A stretch of 13,814 bases of DNA from a virus (Duplodnaviria; Heunggongvirae; Uroviricota; Caudoviricetes). This document shows positions 1 through 13,775 of this stretch, in pieces. The notes below the pieces were generated by a model that searched no databases, was not told where the DNA came from, and was given only the letters and a program-made list of their open reading frames with translations. Location: the IMG/VR virus record IMGVR_UViG_2740892423_000026, positions 1 through 13,814 of that record; one strand, given 5' to 3'. The translations under genes and the position numbers were made by a program. The stretch's first letter is position 1; every line of letters starts with the position of its first letter.

Positions 1-498
1 CGGCTGCAGGTGCAGAGTGATTTGCCGTGGTGGCTGGTCTGCCGGGGGACGATTCATAAGTTCCGCTGTGTGCCGCATCTCACCGGGCGGCGTTTTGAGC
101 ACGGGGTGACGGACTGTTACACGCTGTTCCGGGATGCTTATCATCTGGCGGGGATTGAGATGCCGGATTTTCATCGCGGGGATGACTGGTGGCGTCACGG
201 TCAGAATCTCTATCTTGACAATATGGAGGCGACTGGTTTTTACCGTGTCGCACTGACAGAGGCGCAGCCTGGCGACGTGCTGCTGTGCTGCTTTGGTTCA
301 TCGGTGCCGAATCATGCCGCCATTTACTGTGGTGACGGCGAGCTGCTGCACCATATTCCTGAACAACTGAGCAAACGAGAGAGGTATACCGACAAATGGC
401 AGCGACGCACACACTCCCTCTGGCGTCACCGGGCATGGCACGCATCTGCCTTTACGGGGATTTACAACGATTTGGCCGTCGCATCGACCTTCGTGTGA
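1..498 (+). CDS. K: Tail tip assembly protein K, 3' portion (5' end lies outside the window)
   Basis: Open in frame 1 from base 1. Translation (..PGDVLLCCFGSSVPNHAAIYCGDGELLHHIPEQLSKRERYTDKWQRRTHSLWRHRAW..) matches my recollection of the lambda gpK C-terminus. The 103-nt overlap with the next gene is the same as the lambda K/I overlap. Confidence 0.85.
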   Translation, partial: RLQVQSDLPWWLVCRGTIHKFRCVPHLTGRRFEHGVTDCYTLFRDAYHLAGIEMPDFHRGDDWWRHGQNLYLDNMEATGFYRVALTEAQPGDVLLCCFGSSVPNHAAIYCGDGELLHHIPEQLSKRERYTDKWQRRTHSLWRHRAWHASAFTGIYNDLAVASTFV

Positions 499-1043
499 AA
501 ACGGGGGCTGAAGCCATCCGGGCGCTGGCCACACAGCTTCCGTCGTTTCGCCAGAAACTGAATGAGGGCTGGTATCAGGTGCGCATTTCCGGGCGTGATG
601 CAGGCGAAAATGAATTATCTGCCCGTCTTAATGAACCGCTGGCAAATGGTGCCGTGATCCACGTCGTTCCGCGTCTGGCGGGTGCCAAAAGTGGCGGTGT
701 GTTTCAGGCGGTGCTGGGTGCGGCGCTGATTGCGGTGGCATGGTGGAACCCTGTTGGCTGGCTGGGGGCCGCGGCTGTATCGGGTCTGTATGCAGCAGGG
801 GCCAGTATGATCCTGGGTGGTGTGGCGCAGATGCTGGCACCGAAAGCCAGGACGCCCACGGCAGCCAGTACAGATAACGGCAAACAGAACACGTATTTCT
901 CGTCACTGGATAACATGGTTGCCCAGGGCAATGTTCTGCCTGTTCTGTACGGGGAAATGCGCGTGGGATCACGTGTGGTTTCTCAGGAGATCAGCACGGC
1001 AGACGAAGGGGATGGTGGTCAGGTTGTGGTGATTGGTCGCTGA
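396..1043 (+). CDS. I: Tail tip assembly protein I
   Basis: ATG at 396. N-terminus MAATHTLPLASPGMARICLYGDLQRFGRRIDLRVKTGAEAIRALATQL and C-terminus ..NTYFSSLDNMVAQGNVLPVLYGEMRVGSRVVSQEISTADEGDGGQVVVIGR are near-identical to lambda gpI as I recall it. Overlaps the K 3' end in another frame as in lambda. Confidence 0.9.
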   Translation: MAATHTLPLASPGMARICLYGDLQRFGRRIDLRVKTGAEAIRALATQLPSFRQKLNEGWYQVRISGRDAGENELSARLNEPLANGAVIHVVPRLAGAKSGGVFQAVLGAALIAVAWWNPVGWLGAAAVSGLYAAGASMILGGVAQMLAPKARTPTAASTDNGKQNTYFSSLDNMVAQGNVLPVLYGEMRVGSRVVSQEISTADEGDGGQVVVIGR

Positions 1044-1062
1044 TGCAAAACATTTTATGTGA

Positions 1063-1090
1063 AACCGCCTGCGGGCGGTTTTGTCGTTTA
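1063..1090 (+). terminator. Hairpin plus T-run in the I-J intergenic spacer (possible weak terminator or attenuator)
   Basis: AACCGCC-TGCG-GGCGGTT stem-loop followed by TTTTGTCGTTT, 14 nt before the J start codon. Confidence 0.35.
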
Positions 1091-1103
1091 TGGAGCGTGA
1101 CGA

Positions 1104-4100
1104 ATGGGTAAAGGCAGCAGTAAGGGGCATACCCCGCGCGAAGCGAAGGACAACCTGAAGTCCACGCAGCTGCTGAGTGTGATCGATGCCATCAGCGAAG
1201 GGCCGGTTGAAGGTCCGGTGGATGGATTAAAAAGCGTGCTGCTGAACAGTACGCCGGTGCTGGACAGTGAGGGGAATACCAATATATCCGGCGTCACGGT
1301 GGTGTTCCGGGCCGGTGAGCAGGAGCAGACACCGCCGGAGGGATTTGAATCCTCCGGCTCCGAGACGGTGCTCGGTACAGAAGTGAAATATGACACGCCG
1401 ATCACCCGGACCATCACGTCGGCAAACATTGACCGTCTGCGTTTTACTTTCGGCGTGCAGGCACTGGTGGAAACCACCTCAAAGGGGGACAGGAATCCAT
1501 CGGAAGTCCGCCTGCTGGTTCAGATACAACGTAACGGTGGCTGGGTGACGGAAAAAGACATCACCATTAAGGGCAAAACCACCTCGCAGTATCTGGCCTC
1601 GGTGGTGGTGGATAACCTGCCGCCGCGCCCGTTTAATATACGGATGCGCAGGATGACGCCGGACAGCACCACAGACCAGCTGCAGAACAAAACGCTCTGG
1701 TCGTCATACACCGAAATCATCGATGTGAAACAGTGCTACCGGAACACGGCACTGGTCGGCGTGCAGGTGGATTCGGAGCAGTTCGGCAGCCAGCAGGTGA
1801 GCCGTAATTATCATCTGCGCGGGCGCATTCTGCAGGTGCCGTCGAACTATAACCCGCAGACGCGGCAATACAGCGGTATCTGGGACGGAACGTTTAAGCC
1901 AGCATACAGCAACAACATGGCCTGGTGTCTGTGGGATATGCTGACCCATCCGCGCTACGGCATGGGGAAACGTCTTGGTGCGGCGGATGTGGACAAATGG
2001 GCGCTGTATGTCATCGGCCAGCATTGCGATCAGTCGGTGCCGGACGGTTTTGGCGGCACGGAGCCGCGCATCACCTGTAATGCGTACCTGACCACACAGC
2101 GCAAGGCGTGGGATGTGCTCAGTGATTTCTGCTCTGCGATGCGCTGTATGCCGGTATGGAACGGGCAGACGCTGACGTTCGTGCAGGACCGACCGTCGGA
2201 TAAGGTGTGGACCTATAACCGCAGTAATGTGGTGATGCCGGATGATGGTGCGCCGTTCCGCTACAGCTTCAGCGCCCTGAAGGACCGCCATAATGCCGTT
2301 GAGGTGAACTGGATTGACCCGAATAACGGCTGGGAGACGGCGACAGAGCTTGTGGAGGACACGCAGGCCATTGCCCGTTACGGTCGTAACGTCACGAAGA
2401 TGGATGCTTTTGGCTGTACCAGCCGGGGGCAGGCACACCGCGCCGGGCTGTGGCTGATTAAAACAGAACTGCTGGAAACGCAGACCGTGGACTTCAGCGT
2501 GGGCGCAGAAGGGCTTCGCCATGTGCCGGGTGATGTCATTGAAATCTGTGATGATGACTATGCCGGTATCAGCATCGGCGGGCGCGTGCTGGCGGTAAAC
2601 AGCCAGACCCGGACGCTGACGCTCGACCGTGAAATCACGCTGCCATCCTCCGGTACCACGCTGATAAGCCTGGTTGACGGTCAGGGTAATCCGGTCAGCG
2701 TGGAGGTCCAGTCCGTCACCGACGGCGTGAAGGTGAAAGTGAGCCGGGTTCCTGATGGTGTTGCAGAATACAGCGTGTGGGGGCTGAAGCTGCCGACGTT
2801 GCGCCAGCGCCTGTTCCGCTGTGTGAGTATCCGTGAGAACGATGACGGCACGTATGCCATCACCGCCGTGCAGCATGTACCGGAAAAAGAGGCCATCGTG
2901 GATAACGGGGCGCACTTTGACGGCGACCAGAGCGGCACGGTGAATGGTGTCACGCCGCCAGCGGTGCAGCACCTGACTGCCGAAGTCACCGCAGACAGCG
3001 GGGANNNNNNNNNNTCGCGCATCACCTGTAACGCTTACCTGACCACACAGCGTAAGGCGTGGGATGTGCTCAGTGATTTCTGCTCGGCGATGCGCTGTAT
3101 GCCGGTATGGAACGGGCAGACGCTGACGTTCGTGCAGGACCGACCATCAGATAAGGTGTGGACCTATAACCGCAGTAATGTGGTGATGCCGGATGATGGC
3201 GCGCCGTTCCGCTACAGCTTCAGCGCCCTGAAGGACCGCCATAATGCCGTTGAGGTGAACTGGATTGACCCGGATAACGGCTGGGAGACGGCGACAGAGC
3301 TTGTGGAGGATACGCAGGCCATTGCCCGTTACGGTCGTAATGTCACGAAGATGGATGCTTTTGGCTGTACCAGCCGGGGGCAGGCACACCGCGCCGGGCT
3401 GTGGCTGATTAAAACAGAACTGCTGGAAACGCAGANNNNNNNNNNGTATCAGGTACTGGCCCGCTGGGACACGCCGAAGGTGGTGAAGGGGGTGAGCTTT
3501 ATGCTTCGCCTGACCGTGGCAGCGGACGACGGCAGTGAGCGGCTGGTCAGCACGGCCCGGACGACGGAAACCACATACCGCTTCAGGCAACTGGCGCTGG
3601 GAAATTACAGGCTGACAGTCCGGGCGGTAAATGCATGGGGACAGCAGGGCGATCCGGCATCGGTATTGTTCCGGATCGCCGCACCGGCAGCGCCGTCGCG
3701 GATTGAGCTGACGCCGGGCTATTTTCAGATAACCGCCACGCCGCATCTTGCGGTTTATGATCCGACGGTACAGTTTGAGTTCTGGTTCTCGGAAAAGCGG
3801 ATTGCGGATATCAGGCAGGTTGAAACCACAGCCCGCTATCTTGGTACGGCGCTGTACTGGATAGCCGCCAGTATCAATATCAAACCGGGCCATGATTATT
3901 ACTTTTATATCCGCAGTGTGAACACCGTAGGCAAATCGGCATTTGTGGAGGCCGTCGGTCGGGCGAGCGATGATGCATCCGGCTATCTGGATTTTTTCAA
4001 AGGCGAGATAGGGAAAACCCATCTGGCTCAGGAGCTGTGGACGCAGATTGATAACGGTCAGCTTGCGCCTGACCTGGCTGAAATCAGGACGTCCATTACG

Positions 4101-5042
4101 GATGTCAGCAATGAAATCACGCAGACCGTCAATAAGAAACTGGAAGACCAGAGTGCGGCAATTCAGCAGATACAGAAGGTTCAGGTTGATACAAATAATA
4201 ACCTGAACAGCATGTGGGCTGTGAAGCTGCAGCAGATGCAGGACGGACGCCTTTATATCGCGGGTATTGGTGCCGGTATTGAGAACACCCCTGACGGCAT
4301 GCAGAGTCAGGTGCTGCTGGCGGCGGACAGGATTGCGATGGTTAATCCTGCGAATGGCAACACAAAACCGATGTTTGTTGGTCAGGGCGATCAGATATTC
4401 ATGAACGACGTGTTCCTGAAACGCCTGACGGCCCCCACCATTACCAGCGGTGGAAATCCACCGGCATTTTCCCTGACACCGGACGGAAAGCTGACCGCTA
4501 AAAATGCGGATATCAGTGGCAGTGTGAATGCGAACGCCGGGACGCTCAACAATGTCACGGTAAATGAAAACTGTACGATTAAGGGCATGCTGGAGGCGAC
4601 TCAGGTCAGAGGTGACTTCGTTAAAGCTGTATCCAAATCATTTCCGAAACAGGCTGGTACGTGGGGTAACACGGAAACACCAGACGGGACGGTTACAGTC
4701 ACCATCAGCGATGATCATAACTTTGACCGTCAAATCATTATTCCGCCCATTATCTTTAACGGAATAGCGTATAGCGATCCGGGAAGTGGTAATAACCCGG
4801 GAGGTACAAGATACACGGGTTATGGTTTTGAAGTTCGCAAAAACGGTGTATTAATCGCATCCAGAGAAACTAAAGGGGCCATTCCCGGTAGCTACAGTGC
4901 GGTTATTGATATGCCGAGTGGCAGGGGAAGCGTCACTCTGGAGTTTAAGGTTTTCCATAAAGGCAATCAGTGGGCAGGTAATATCACCGACTGTACGGTG
5001 ATTGTGACCAAAAAAGCTGCTTCCGGCATCAGTATTCGTTGA
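1104..5042 (+). CDS. J: Tail tip / host-specificity protein J (central fibre); reading frame as assembled includes a 441-bp N-flanked duplicated block
   Basis: ATG at 1104 with GGAG upstream. N-terminus [34 protein letters not shown] and most of the length are near-identical to lambda gpJ as recalled. The last ~300 aa (after ..[25 protein letters not shown]) diverge from lambda but keep the conserved ..[46 protein letters not shown].. block. Confidence 0.9.
3005..3445. other. N10 + 421-bp near-copy of J segment ~2064..2484 + N10; probable scaffolding or assembly artefact
   Basis: Two runs of exactly 10 N (3005..3014, 3436..3445) bracket a block that repeats 2065..2484 at a constant offset of 951 nt with about 10 point differences. 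The flanks GGGGA|GTATCAGG read ..ADSG-E-YQVL.. when joined directly, as in lambda J. Block length 441 = 3 x 147, so the frame is kept. Confidence 0.7.
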
Positions 5043-5063
5043 AGTTGTTATAACCCATATAAG

Positions 5064-5090
5064 GGCACCAGAAATGGTGCCTTTTTTATT
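5064..5090 (+). terminator. Rho-independent terminator downstream of J
   Basis: GGCACCA-GAAA-TGGTGCC perfect 7-bp stem followed by TTTTTTATT, 22 nt after the J stop codon. Confidence 0.7.
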
Positions 5091-5111
5091 GCAGAAAAGC
5101 GAGAGGTAATT

Positions 5112-5711
5112 ATGCGTAAAGTTTGTGCAGCCATTTTGTCCGCAGCCATTTGTCTGGCCGTATCCGGTGCGCCTGCATGGGCATCTGAACATCAGTCCAC
5201 GCTGAGCGCGGGGTATCTTCATGCCCGGACCAACGTTCCCGGCAGCGATGATCTGAACGGGATTAACGTGAAATACCGTTATGAGTTTACGGACACACTG
5301 GGGCTGGTGACGTCATTCAGCTATGCAGGAGACAAGAATCGCCAGCTTACCCGTTACAGCGATACCCGCTGGCATGAAGATTCCGTTCGTAACCGCTGGT
5401 TCAGCGTGATGGCGGGGCCGTCTGTGCGCGTGAATGAATGGTTCAGCGCGTATGCGATGGCGGGTGTGGCTTACAGCCGTATTTCTACTTTCTCCGGGGA
5501 TTATCTCCGCGTAACTGACAACAAGGGGAAAACGCACGAAGTGCTGACCGGAAGTGATGATGGTCGCCACAGCAACACGTCTCTGGCGTGGGGGGCTGGC
5601 GTGCAGTTTAACCCGACCGAATCCGTGGCCATTGATATTGCTTATGAAGGCTCCGGCAGTGGCGACTGGCGCACTGACGGTTTCATCGTGGGTGTCGGTT
5701 ATAAATTCTGA
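5112..5711 (+). CDS. lom: Outer-membrane protein Lom (Ail/Lom family beta-barrel; lysogenic-conversion gene)
   Basis: ATG at 5112 preceded by GAGAGG. Signal peptide [25 protein letters not shown]-terminus ..[27 protein letters not shown] identical to lambda Lom as recalled; ends in aromatic F typical of OM beta-barrels. Confidence 0.9.
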
Positions 5712-5737
5712 TTAGCCAGGTAACACAGTGTTATGAC

Positions 5738-5765
5738 AGCCCGCCGGTTCAGGCGGGCTTTTTTG
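5738..5765 (+). terminator. Rho-independent terminator downstream of lom
   Basis: AGCCCGCC-GGTTCA-GGCGGGCT 8-bp stem followed by TTTTTT. Confidence 0.75.
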
Positions 5766-5775
5766 TGGGGTGAAT

Positions 5776-8700
5776 ATGGCAGTAAAGATTTCAGGTGTAC
5801 TGAAAGACGGCGCAGGTAAACCGGTACAGAACTGCACAATCCAGCTGAAAGCAAAACGTAACAGCACCACGGTGGTGGCGAACACGGTGGCCTCAGAAAA
5901 TCCGGATGAAGCCGGGCGTTACAGCATGGACGTTGAGTACGGTCAGTACAGCGTTATTCTGTTGGTGGAAGGCTTCCCGCCATCGCATGCCGGGACCATC
6001 ACCGTGTATGAAGACTCACAACCGGGTACGCTGAATGATTTTCTCGGTGCCATGACGGAGGATGATGTCCGTCCGGAGGCACTGCGCCGCTTTGAACTGA
6101 TGGTGGAAGAGGTGGCGTGTAACGCGTCCGCAGTGGCGCAGAACACAGCAGCCGCGAAGAAGTCAGCCAGCGATGCCAGCACATCAGCCCGTGAGGCGGC
6201 AACCCATGCGACTGATGCTGCAGGCTCAGCACGTGCAGCCAGCACGTCAGCCGGACAGGCCGCTTCGTCGGCTCAGTCAGCGTCTTCCAGCGCAGGAACG
6301 GCATCAGCAAAGGCCACTGAAGCATCAAAAAGTGCTGCCGCTGCAGAGTCTTCAAAAAGCGCGGCAGCCACCAGTGCCGGTGCAGCGAAAACGTCAGAAA
6401 CGAATGCCGCAGCATCACAAAAATCTGCGGCCACTTCTGCATCCACCGCGACCACGAAAGCGTCAGAAGCTGCCACCTCAGCCCGGGATGCGTCGGCTTC
6501 AAAAGTGGCGGCAAAATCATCAGAAACGAGCGCAGCCTCGAGCGCCGGCAGTGCAGCTTCCTCGGCAACGGCGGCAGGAAATTCCGCGAAGGCCGCAAAA
6601 ACGTCTGAGACGAATGCGGATAACAGCGCACAGGCGGCAGCAGNNNNNNNNNNTTCCGCGACAGCAGCCAAAAAATCAGAAACCAACGCGAAAAATAGTG
6701 AGTCAGCAGCAAAGGTCAGCGAAACCAACGCTAAAGCGTCAGAGAACAAGGCGAAAGAATATCTCGACAAGGTCGGGGGACTCGTCAGCCCGATGACGCA
6801 ATACGATTGGCCTGTTGTTACTGCTAGTGAGTCTCTTTACATCAAGATCGCGAAACTTTCCGATCCTGGAACCAGCAGAAGTCATGTAACGCTAATGGTT
6901 ACTAACGCTGGTAACTACGGCTCCCCTTACGGAAACATTGACTTTATCGAGATCTCGGCGCGCGGTCTGCCTTCTTTGCTTAGTGCGGATAATGTTTCTC
7001 GTCATCTGAGTATACGCCGCTTAGGGTCAACCGGGCTGACCGATAACAACCAGATGCGTTACGGCCTGGTTAAAGGTGACGGCTTTATTGAGGTTTGGGC
7101 ATTCCAGGGTGCGTTTATTAACGACGCAAAGGTTGCGGTGCTGGCGCAGACAACACTAAACACAGAATTATACATTCCAGACGGATTTGTTAAGCAAACC
7201 GCCGCGCCTTCTGGATATATTGAAGGCAACGTTGTAAGGATTTACGACCAGGTAAACAAGCCGACTAAAGCAGATTTGGGTCTTTCTAATGCTATGCTTA
7301 CAGGCGCTTTCGGTCTTGGCGGTAGCGGGATATCAACAAACGGCAAGATGAGCGATGTAGAGATCTTAAAAGCTCTGCGTGACAAAGGTGGTCATTTCTG
7401 GCGCGGTGATAAGCCGACCGGAAGCACGGCGACCATTTATAGCCACGGTTCTGGTATATTCTCGCGGTGCGGCGATACGTGGTCAGCGATCAATATCGAC
7501 TACTCAACCGCGAAGATTAAGATCTATGCCGGCAACGATGCCCGGCTTAACAACGGGACTTTTAGCGTCAATGAGCTATACGGCTCGGCAAACAAGCCGT
7601 CGAAATCGGATGTTGGACTTGGCAACGTAACGAACGATGCGCAGGTAAAAAAAACCGGCGATACAATGACCGGTGACTTGACAATCAAAAAAGGTACACC
7701 GTCAGTCTTCCTGCGGGCAGACAGTGGAGTCACCGCTTTGCGGTTTTATACTGGCGATAACACAGAGCGCGGCATAATCTATGCTGGTCCTAACACTGAT
7801 TCGCTTGGCGAAGTTCGCATCAGGGCAAAGACAGCAGGGGGGACATCAGGAGGGGATCTTGTTGTTCGTCACGACGGGAGGGTTGAAGTCCGTGATCTCA
7901 CAGTAGCGTATAAAATTAAAAGCAGAACGATTGAGATTGCAAATACCGACACTGACTCATCGGCAACTACGCTAAGCATCTATGGAGTACAGCACACGCC
8001 GTTGGTTTTAACGCGTTCTGGTTCTTCTGAAAATGTGTCCATTGGGTTTAAGTTAGACAACATGAACCCAAAGTATCTTGGAATTGATACTAATGGGGAT
8101 CTGGCTTTTGGTGAGAGTCCTGATCAGAAACAAAACAGCAAATTGATCACGCAAGCGAAACTCGACAAGGGATTAACGATTGGTGGTCAACTGGCTTTCA
8201 AAGGTACGACAGCGTTTTCAGCCGTTGCTACGTTCAGTGCCGGGATAGCAGGAGCCATCGAGCCGGAAAACATTGACGGCCAGACGGTTAATCTTAACAA
8301 CCTGACCATCATCAAGTCAGATGCCGGGGCAGTTAAATACTATATTTGTCCATCCTCTGCAGGTGGTGCAAATATCACCAACAAGCCTGACGGCGTAACA
8401 GGTAACTTTTTGCTCCGTGTTGAATCGACTCGTAAGGTTAGGGATTCAGATTATGCGAACATGCAAACGCTGATTAACAGCGACACAAAACGTATATACG
8501 TTCGCTTTGTTGTTAATGGAAACTGGACAGCGTGGAGTCAGGTTGTTGTTTCCGGATGGAATCAGGATGTAACCGTCAGGTCGTTAACCTCGACGACTCC
8601 ATCAAAATTAGGTGGCGGGCGGATTGATGTGCTTGGAAGTACGTCAGATTATGGCAGCATGAATTGTACCGTTCGTGGTGTTGATAGCACTGGAACCAAT

Positions 8701-9543
8701 TCGGCGTGGTCGGTAGGCACATCAGAAAGCACAGGCAAAATGTTGTTCCTGAAAAACCACAGAAGCAGCGCTCAAGTGCTGTTAAATGGCGATGATGGAG
8801 CGGTTCAACTACTAAGTGGCACTGTTAACGGTGCTACAGCGCAGGCGCTAACCATCAACAAAGATGAGGTTAACTCAACTGCCGATTTAGTAATTAGAAA
8901 ACAAACAGGGACTGGCAATCGTTTTGCTTTACTTAATTCAGGTAATTCAGAACTACCAGTTAGTATCAGGGTGTGGGGTTCCAGTACTCGACAAAACGTT
9001 TTTGAGGTTGGCACGTCTGCTGCGTATCTGTTTTATGCGCAAAAAACAACAGACGGGCAAAACCTTACTGTAAACGGAAGTGTTAACTGCACCACACTGA
9101 ATCAGTCATCAGACCGCAGACTGAAAGAAAATATCGAGATTATCGATAACGCGACTGACGCAATCCGCAAAATTAATGGATACACGTACACGCTCAAGGA
9201 GAATGGGGCACATTGCGCCGGGGTTATAGCCCAGGAAGTTGAAGAGGCCATCCCGGAGGCCGTTGGTTCATTCATCCATTACGGTGAAGAGTTGCAAGGC
9301 CCGACCGTTGACGGCAACGAGCTACGCGAAGAAACGCGCTATCTTAATGTTGACTACGCCGCCGTGACGGGTTTACTTGTTCAGGTCGCCCGTGAAACAG
9401 ATGATCGCGTTACCGCGCTGGAAGAGGAAAACACAACGCTACGTCAAAATCTGGCAACAGCAGGCACCCGGATCACCACTCTGGAAAATCAGGTAAGCGA
9501 ACTGGTTGCACTTGTCCGGCAGTTAACAGGAAGCGAACATTGA
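5776..9543 (+). CDS. stf: Mosaic side tail fiber: lambda Stf-like N-terminal anchor, Ala/Ser-rich repeat shaft (contains a 10-N gap), divergent distal region, C-terminal self-cleaving intramolecular chaperone domain (peptidase S74-like)
   Basis: ATG at 5776 gives MAVKISGVLKDGAGKPVQNCTIQLKAKRNSTTVVANTV.., matching the lambda Stf N-terminus (the ORF track begins at a GTG two codons upstream). Shaft is long A/S/T/K repeats (AAKTSETNA.. units). Distal part carries fibre motifs NKPTKADLGLSNA, NKPSKSDVGLGNVTNDAQ and GDTMTGDLTIKKG. C-terminus has SSDRRLKENIEII...INGYTYTLKENG..GVIAQEVEEAIPEAV followed by a coiled-coil (TALEEENTTLRQNLATAGTRITTLENQVSELVALVRQL), the signature of the endosialidase / T5 L-shaped-fibre chaperone domain. 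Confidence 0.85.
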   Translation: MAVKISGVLKDGAGKPVQNCTIQLKAKRNSTTVVANTVASENPDEAGRYSMDVEYGQYSVILLVEGFPPSHAGTITVYEDSQPGTLNDFLGAMTEDDVRPEALRRFELMVEEVACNASAVAQNTAAAKKSASDASTSAREAATHATDAAGSARAASTSAGQAASSAQSASSSAGTASAKATEASKSAAAAESSKSAAATSAGAAKTSETNAAASQKSAATSASTATTKASEAATSARDASASKVAAKSSETSAASSAGSAASSATAAGNSAKAAKTSETNADNSAQAAAXXXXSATAAKKSETNAKNSESAAKVSETNAKASENKAKEYLDKVGGLVSPMTQYDWPVVTASESLYIKIAKLSDPGTSRSHVTLMVTNAGNYGSPYGNIDFIEISARGLPSLLSADNVSRHLSIRRLGSTGLTDNNQMRYGLVKGDGFIEVWAFQGAFINDAKVAVLAQTTLNTELYIPDGFVKQTAAPSGYIEGNVVRIYDQVNKPTKADLGLSNAMLTGAFGLGGSGISTNGKMSDVEILKALRDKGGHFWRGDKPTGSTATIYSHGSGIFSRCGDTWSAINIDYSTAKIKIYAGNDARLNNGTFSVNELYGSANKPSKSDVGLGNVTNDAQVKKTGDTMTGDLTIKKGTPSVFLRADSGVTALRFYTGDNTERGIIYAGPNTDSLGEVRIRAKTAGGTSGGDLVVRHDGRVEVRDLTVAYKIKSRTIEIANTDTDSSATTLSIYGVQHTPLVLTRSGSSENVSIGFKLDNMNPKYLGIDTNGDLAFGESPDQKQNSKLITQAKLDKGLTIGGQLAFKGTTAFSAVATFSAGIAGAIEPENIDGQTVNLNNLTIIKSDAGAVKYYICPSSAGGANITNKPDGVTGNFLLRVESTRKVRDSDYANMQTLINSDTKRIYVRFVVNGNWTAWSQVVVSGWNQDVTVRSLTSTTPSKLGGGRIDVLGSTSDYGSMNCTVRGVDSTGTNSAWSVGTSESTGKMLFLKNHRSSAQVLLNGDDGAVQLLSGTVNGATAQALTINKDEVNSTADLVIRKQTGTGNRFALLNSGNSELPVSIRVWGSSTRQNVFEVGTSAAYLFYAQKTTDGQNLTVNGSVNCTTLNQSSDRRLKENIEIIDNATDAIRKINGYTYTLKENGAHCAGVIAQEVEEAIPEAVGSFIHYGEELQGPTVDGNELREETRYLNVDYAAVTGLLVQVARETDDRVTALEEENTTLRQNLATAGTRITTLENQVSELVALVRQLTGSEH
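6644..6653. other. Assembly gap (10 N) inside the Ala/Ser-rich repeat region of the tail fiber gene
   Basis: Run of exactly 10 N in low-complexity repeat DNA; true length of the repeat shaft is unknown. Confidence 0.9.
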
Positions 9544-13412: not shown

Positions 13413-13775
13413 TGGTGGAGCTGGCGGGAGTTGAACCCGCGTCCGAAATTCCTACATCCTCGGTACTACATGCTTAGTCAGTCTTTACATTCGCTTGCCA
13501 GCTGCGGACGGACACGCCACTAACAAACTAGCCTGATTAAGTTTTAACGCTTCAACCCCAGGCAGGGCTTCCACGCGATCTCTTTTGGGTTTGACCTCTC
13601 TTGATCCCCGTCCTAAGAGCGGAGGCTAGGGAGAGAGGGCTCTAAGCAGGTTATTAAGCTGCTAAAGCGTAGTTTTCGTCGTTTGCGACTATTTTTTGCG
13701 GCTTTTTACGAGGCCAACCGCCCCTCGGCATGCACCTTGGGTTTCGCAAATCCCGTCGAATCCAGAATCAGCCCC
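13413..13775 (-). ncRNA. ssrA: tmRNA (SsrA), complete 363-nt gene
   Basis: Reverse complement begins GGGGCTGATTCTGGATTCGACGGG.. and ends ..GGTTCAACTCCCGCCAGCTCCACCA. It contains the tag reading frame GCAAACGACGAAAACTACGCTTTAGCAGCTTAA (ANDENYALAA*) at 13654..13686. Matches the E. coli ssrA sequence as I recall it. Confidence 0.95.

Follow-up and report, generated by a model that had tools for sequence, protein, structure and literature searches.

Does the tail tip gene J of a lambdoid prophage of E. coli carry a genuine internal duplication, or has a piece of a second J gene been placed inside it during assembly? The question arises from a stretch of DNA of 13,814 nucleotides (the window, by which we mean the whole stretch that was analysed), in which a segment of J recurs further downstream in the same gene, enclosed by two runs of N. 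Taken together, our results indicate that this duplication is almost certainly an ordinary scaffolding artefact of a draft assembly and not a biological feature.

Gene J and its internal repeat

The window corresponds to positions 3-13816 of JRGD01000121.1, a 32,556-bp contig of an NCBI draft WGS assembly (GCA_000754845.1), and the contig itself starts 2 nt upstream of the window, within the tail gene K, which encodes a C40 peptidase. The content of the window is the right end of a lambdoid prophage with the following features:

10-498: K, partial (gene calls, Pfam matches)
396-1043: I (gene calls, Pfam matches)
1104-5042, plus strand: J, lambda-like tail tip attachment/host specificity protein (ORF list, Pfam, recorded gene call)
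2064-2484, plus strand: in-place copy of the repeated segment, J codons 321-460 and the first base of codon 461, in the Phage-tail_3 domain
3005-3014: first 10-N run, a scaffold gap placeholder with zero real sequence missing by comparison with CP149559
3015-3435, plus strand: misplaced piece (the block, 421 nt), a variant allele of J 2064-2484
3436-3445: second 10-N run, a scaffold gap placeholder
3446, plus strand: start of the right-hand piece, at the third position of a Glu codon (GAG), and site of a G/A polymorphism
5112-5711: lom (gene calls, Pfam matches)
5770-9543: long side tail fibre gene (gene calls)
6644-6653: third 10-N run, in an Ala/Ser-rich repetitive part of the side tail fibre gene, a true small gap
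interval from the tail fibre gene to ssrA: small cargo region
13413-13775, minus strand: ssrA (tmRNA gene), with the tag peptide ANDENYALAA

The gene order K, I, J, lom, stf is that of the lambdoid tail module and is the same in the RefSeq annotation of E. coli 1506D011 (CP149559), the closest complete genome for the window as a whole (97 % of the window covered at 97.0 % identity). The counterpart in CP149559 spans 13,363 bp versus 13,814 for the window, a difference of 451 bp. By exact protein lookup, the I protein was found with identical sequence in 4,886 index blocks. Between the tail fibre gene and ssrA, the cargo region encodes an LEM-3-like GIY-YIG protein, a pair consisting of an ImmA/IrrE peptidase and an HTH protein, and a BRO-N protein. 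In CP149559 as well as in the source contig, smpB comes next after ssrA, indicating that the prophage is integrated beside ssrA.

The block at 3015-3435 aligns to 2064-2484 without gaps, at an offset of 951 nt (3 x 317) and with 11 mismatches (97.4 % identity), and a 420-nt repeat of about 97 % identity cannot be chance. The initial annotation, made from the letters of the window, had already recognized this repeat as 3016-3435 versus 2065-2484 with about 10 substitutions and an identity of 97-98 %, which agrees with our count over these limits (10/420, 97.6 %), and it had correctly described the block as flanked by exactly 10 N on each side. It was also right about the block and its position, but it set the limits one base too tight: the block opens with T 3015, which already mismatches its counterpart C 2064. 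Window-wide, there are three runs of exactly 10 N, and the third of them, at 6644-6653, was absent from that annotation.

Together, the two N runs and the block make up 441 nt, or 147 codons, inserted at J codon 634. The block keeps the native frame, and the J ORF is open from 1104 to 5042 and encodes 1312 aa, of which 8 are X and 140 are duplicated; after removal of 3005-3445, J has 1165 aa. The warning that automated annotation would report a J that is 147 aa too long is borne out by the gene call on record, at 1312 aa versus 1165 aa for the repaired protein. This gene call is held in the contig index, and the 1312-aa J had no exact-sequence entry in the protein cluster table.

Continuity of J across the block

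The bases on either side of the insert, 3004 and 3446, correspond to the adjacent bases 6004 and 6005 in the fetched segment of CP149559, where window positions 1-3004 map to 3001-6004 and the sequence from 3446 onward continues from 6005. The block maps to 5065-5484 of the same segment, inside J, and in every relative it maps to the native J position equivalent to 2064-2484. We also queried complete E. coli genomes with 810 nt in which both flanks were joined directly, accepting as a match only an alignment in one piece over at least 80 % of the query length. Such a single-piece alignment was obtained in 4,435/5,426 genomes, always in genes annotated as J. The insertion had been placed by the initial annotation between bases that are adjacent in lambda-like J (ADSG|E-YQVL), and this adjacency is seen in intact J genes; the 13 intact J genes that we fetched all encode 1132-1232 aa with single-copy domains. 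These comparisons show that the real J consists of 1104-3004 joined straight to 3446-5042, and that the block is foreign at that place.

The junction between the left flank and the block was searched for with a 200-nt query, 100 nt of which came from the end of the left flank and 100 nt from the beginning of the block. In the normal arrangement, these halves occur in reverse order at a distance of about 740 nt, and the query length was set to prevent them from being merged into one match. At a coverage of at least 80 %, the junction was found in 0/5,426 complete E. coli genomes and in 0/50,697 phage records. These results bear directly on a genuine dispersed in-frame duplication, in which J codons 321-460 would have been copied into codon 634 and the junctions merely have gone unread. 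Such an event would agree with the native frame being kept and the ORF being open, and with N on both sides of the block its junctions are formally unread; the preserved frame is weak evidence, as both frames would be kept by chance in about 1 in 9 cases. Yet neither flank loses sequence, and the junction that a duplication would have created is missing from all of these collections. We consider a genuine duplication extremely unlikely.

The domain structure of the protein argues in the same direction. The repaired J contains the Pfam series FNIII-A_GpJ, Phage-tail_3, Ig_J, Ig_J_second, Phage_Tail_Tip and Ig_GpJ_C, all above the gathering score, with one Phage-tail_3 stretch and a complete Ig_J (profile 1-104, 142.5 bits), whereas the deposited J has two Phage-tail_3 stretches and an Ig_J matched at profile 24-104 only (124.2 bits). 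The insert thus cuts the 104-position Ig_J about 24 positions in and adds a truncated Phage-tail_3 fragment, neither of which speaks for a genuine duplication. That the strain makes a J whose first Ig-like domain contains a 140-residue Phage-tail_3 duplication, gained through recombination with another J allele and hidden at its junctions by the N runs, is in our judgement exceedingly improbable.

The repaired J and the J of LT838196.1 are both 1165 aa long and 98.2 % identical overall. From 3591 to the stop codon (3591-5042), J is 100 % identical to that of LT838196.1, and the C-terminal receptor-binding part (4575-5003) gave no alignment to CP149559. This C-terminal pattern is typical of mosaic exchange of the host-range end.

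Origin of the second J sequence

If the block is foreign at its place, from where does it come? The 11 differences between the block and the in-place copy comprise nine synonymous third-position changes, one change from Asn to Asp and one boundary base. At 10 of the 11 sites, the variant base of the block is present in intact J genes (each in 1 to 13 of 13); the leading T (3015) is in none of these 13 genes and may be a sequencing or consensus error. Because the differences are mostly synonymous and the variants are natural J alleles, the block comes from a J gene that has evolved independently under selection, and is neither a recent in-place copy nor noise. Differences that are nearly all synonymous and common to other J genes are unlike those of a recent in-place copy, which adds to the case against a genuine duplication. 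In agreement with the proposal that a second J-like sequence exists in the source material, the two properties hold for 9/11 and 10/11 of the differences, respectively.

The in-place copy, 2064-2484, is matched at 100 % identity in many complete E. coli genomes, in each case within J, and the best match of the block among the 5,426 complete genomes is 98.8 %, with no match at 100 %. CP149559, the relative of the whole window, carries 8 of the 11 block alleles; LT838196.1, which has the closest J, shows 12 mismatches to the in-place copy versus 17 to the block. With these two relatives disagreeing, either the block or 2064-2484 may be the native allele of the ssrA-adjacent prophage.

Complete E. 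coli genomes with a match hold a median of 3 copies of the segment, and up to 14, and one chromosome of E. ruysiae carries two J genes that differ by 4.3 % along these 421 nt, in part at sites where the block and the in-place copy differ too. The draft contig begins inside K, and three 10-N runs follow within 6.7 kb. A contig break within K would fit upstream tail genes that are common to another prophage and were collapsed in assembly. Because multiple J copies are common and the contig starts within the shared tail module, we infer that the second J is that of a resident paralogous prophage rather than of a second strain.

The same artefact could have arisen if the culture was mixed, contaminated or heterogeneous in itself and owed its second J allele to this instead of to a second prophage. 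A paralogue and a second strain are indistinguishable by sequence alone, and a block allele without an exact match in the complete genomes would suit such an origin. The number of segment copies in matching complete E. coli genomes nevertheless argues for a resident source, as does a contig start inside K, as the product of repeat collapse between resident prophages; a mixed sample would be expected to give bubbles genome-wide. We therefore regard a mixed sample as unlikely. With high confidence, we favour an artefact in a short-read draft assembly that involves at least two closely related lambda-like J sequences; their most likely sources are two lambdoid prophages of a single E. coli genome.

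Lambda-like J sequences also turned up elsewhere in public data. An exact scan of a species-representative genome collection with a fully conserved 56-mer of lambda-like J gave matches in assemblies of unrelated organisms, including Neobacillus, Kitasatospora, Enterococcus, Pseudomonas, Shewanella, Bradyrhizobium and others. The contigs were often of low coverage and several were about 48.4-48.5 kb long, for example those of Pseudomonas sp. 30_B (48,442 bp), Pseudomonas sp. NFX15 (48,392 bp) and Shewanella canadensis (48,542 bp). These matches look like contamination of public assemblies with phage lambda DNA.

Break-points, scaffolding and known systems

The positions at which the pieces of J begin and end suggest how the block came to lie where it does. 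The block starts on a variant base and ends exactly 94 nt past its last variant (3341). At the position equivalent to 3446, where the right-hand piece begins, the 13 intact J genes have A in 10 cases and G in 3, and the left piece ends one base before this site. As GAG/GAA is a common polymorphism among J genes, 3446 is a likely branch point of an assembly graph. In a simulation with two alleles that differed at the block sites and at 3446, and in which a node was given as the last base of each of its k-mers, the node of the second allele was exactly 2064-2484 at k = 95 only, among the k tested; neighbouring variants are at most 73 nt apart, which leaves the node unbroken at k = 95. The three break-points would accordingly behave as de Bruijn graph nodes written by a scaffolder in which appended nodes lose their k-1 prefix, and the assembler was probably of the Velvet type, run with k = 95. 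Break-points that fall on variant bases, as graph nodes do, are a further argument against a genuine duplication.

In Velvet, gaps shorter than 10 bp are written as 10 N. A literature search for a convention of 10 N as a minimum gap returned irrelevant uses of '10 Ns' only.

The following sequence of steps could have produced the deposited gene. Two J copies would collapse in the graph where they are identical and branch where they differ, with 2485-3004 common to both. One allele would have been threaded through as 2064-2484, and the other would have been left as an orphan node of 421 nt that read pairs tied to downstream sequence. As the true position of this orphan overlapped the piece that had already been laid down, the scaffolder may have used the next slot, the branch point 3004|3446, and both non-positive gaps would then have been written as minimum-length 10-N runs.

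A related possibility, that the left piece is itself chimeric, with a haplotype switch at 2064 or 3004, was considered and rejected: the mismatches to the J of LT838196.1 are scattered over 1448-3590 and show no step. Judged from this alignment, the scatter is ordinary lambdoid mosaicism.

Another procedure could yield the same artefact. Had contigs been placed in order along a reference genome and strung together with spacers of 10 N, their mapped starts would have put the left piece first, then the 421-nt piece and then the right piece, as observed, and the spacer length would have been fixed. The record, however, is one 32.6-kb contig, number 121 of a fragmented WGS set, and not a pseudochromosome, and the asymmetric geometry of the node, with its start at the first variant and its end at the last variant plus k-1, points to a de Bruijn scaffolder. 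Reference ordering thus appears very unlikely. The misplacement by a scaffolder of a short contig from a second, related J, as put forward in the initial annotation, is supported by the contiguous flanks, the absent junction, the J alleles, the split Ig domain and the draft nature of the source.

Unlike the two runs in J, the third N run stands for sequence that is really missing, a small gap at which the closest complete genome has about 22 nt; the length of 10 N is therefore apparently a convention and not a measurement. The tail fibre ORF (5770-9543) is open across 6644-6653, and its product of 1257 aa includes unknown residues. After this gap, the right-hand piece begins on T 6654, where the closest relative has a different base. 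In CP149559 (fetched segment 8316-12275), the side tail fibre is annotated in fragments, namely two pseudogenes, one N-terminal and one for a truncated tail fibre assembly protein, and a separate protein with a tail fibre domain, versus the single long, N-interrupted frame of the window.

The relevance of these observations is one of data hygiene only. Because the misplaced piece keeps the frame, the J read from the public record looks intact, yet its 1312 aa include 8 unknown residues and a repeat of 140 residues that is spurious; an inflated J of this kind could mislead surveys of tail-tip and host-range diversity, counts of domain architectures and structure predictions. A short, near-identical copy of nearby sequence between minimum-length N runs is a flag for such an artefact; flanks that join seamlessly in finished relatives and ends that lie on variant bases are further signs.

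Similarly to gpJ of phage lambda (TipJ family), the repaired J has the full gpJ Pfam architecture, a corresponding length and the position in the order K-I-J-lom-stf, whereas the deposited J has an extra partial Phage-tail_3 in its first Ig-like domain, an arrangement present in no finished genome searched. With genuine intragenic domain duplications in tail fibre and tail tip genes, it shares an in-frame repeat of a segment inside a single gene. However, such duplications have readable junctions, respect domain boundaries and consist of copies that are initially identical, while this J has junctions made of N, a split domain and copies that differ by standing synonymous alleles. A further parallel is provided by misplaced repeat or variant contigs in scaffolded short-read assemblies of E. 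coli with several lambdoid prophages, with which it has in common the fixed N placeholders, the near-identical copy, the contiguous flanks, the break-points where paralogues differ and the contig end inside a shared tail module. It differs from these in nothing essential; what is unusual here is that the frame is kept, and thus the artefact passes as a longer, intact gene.
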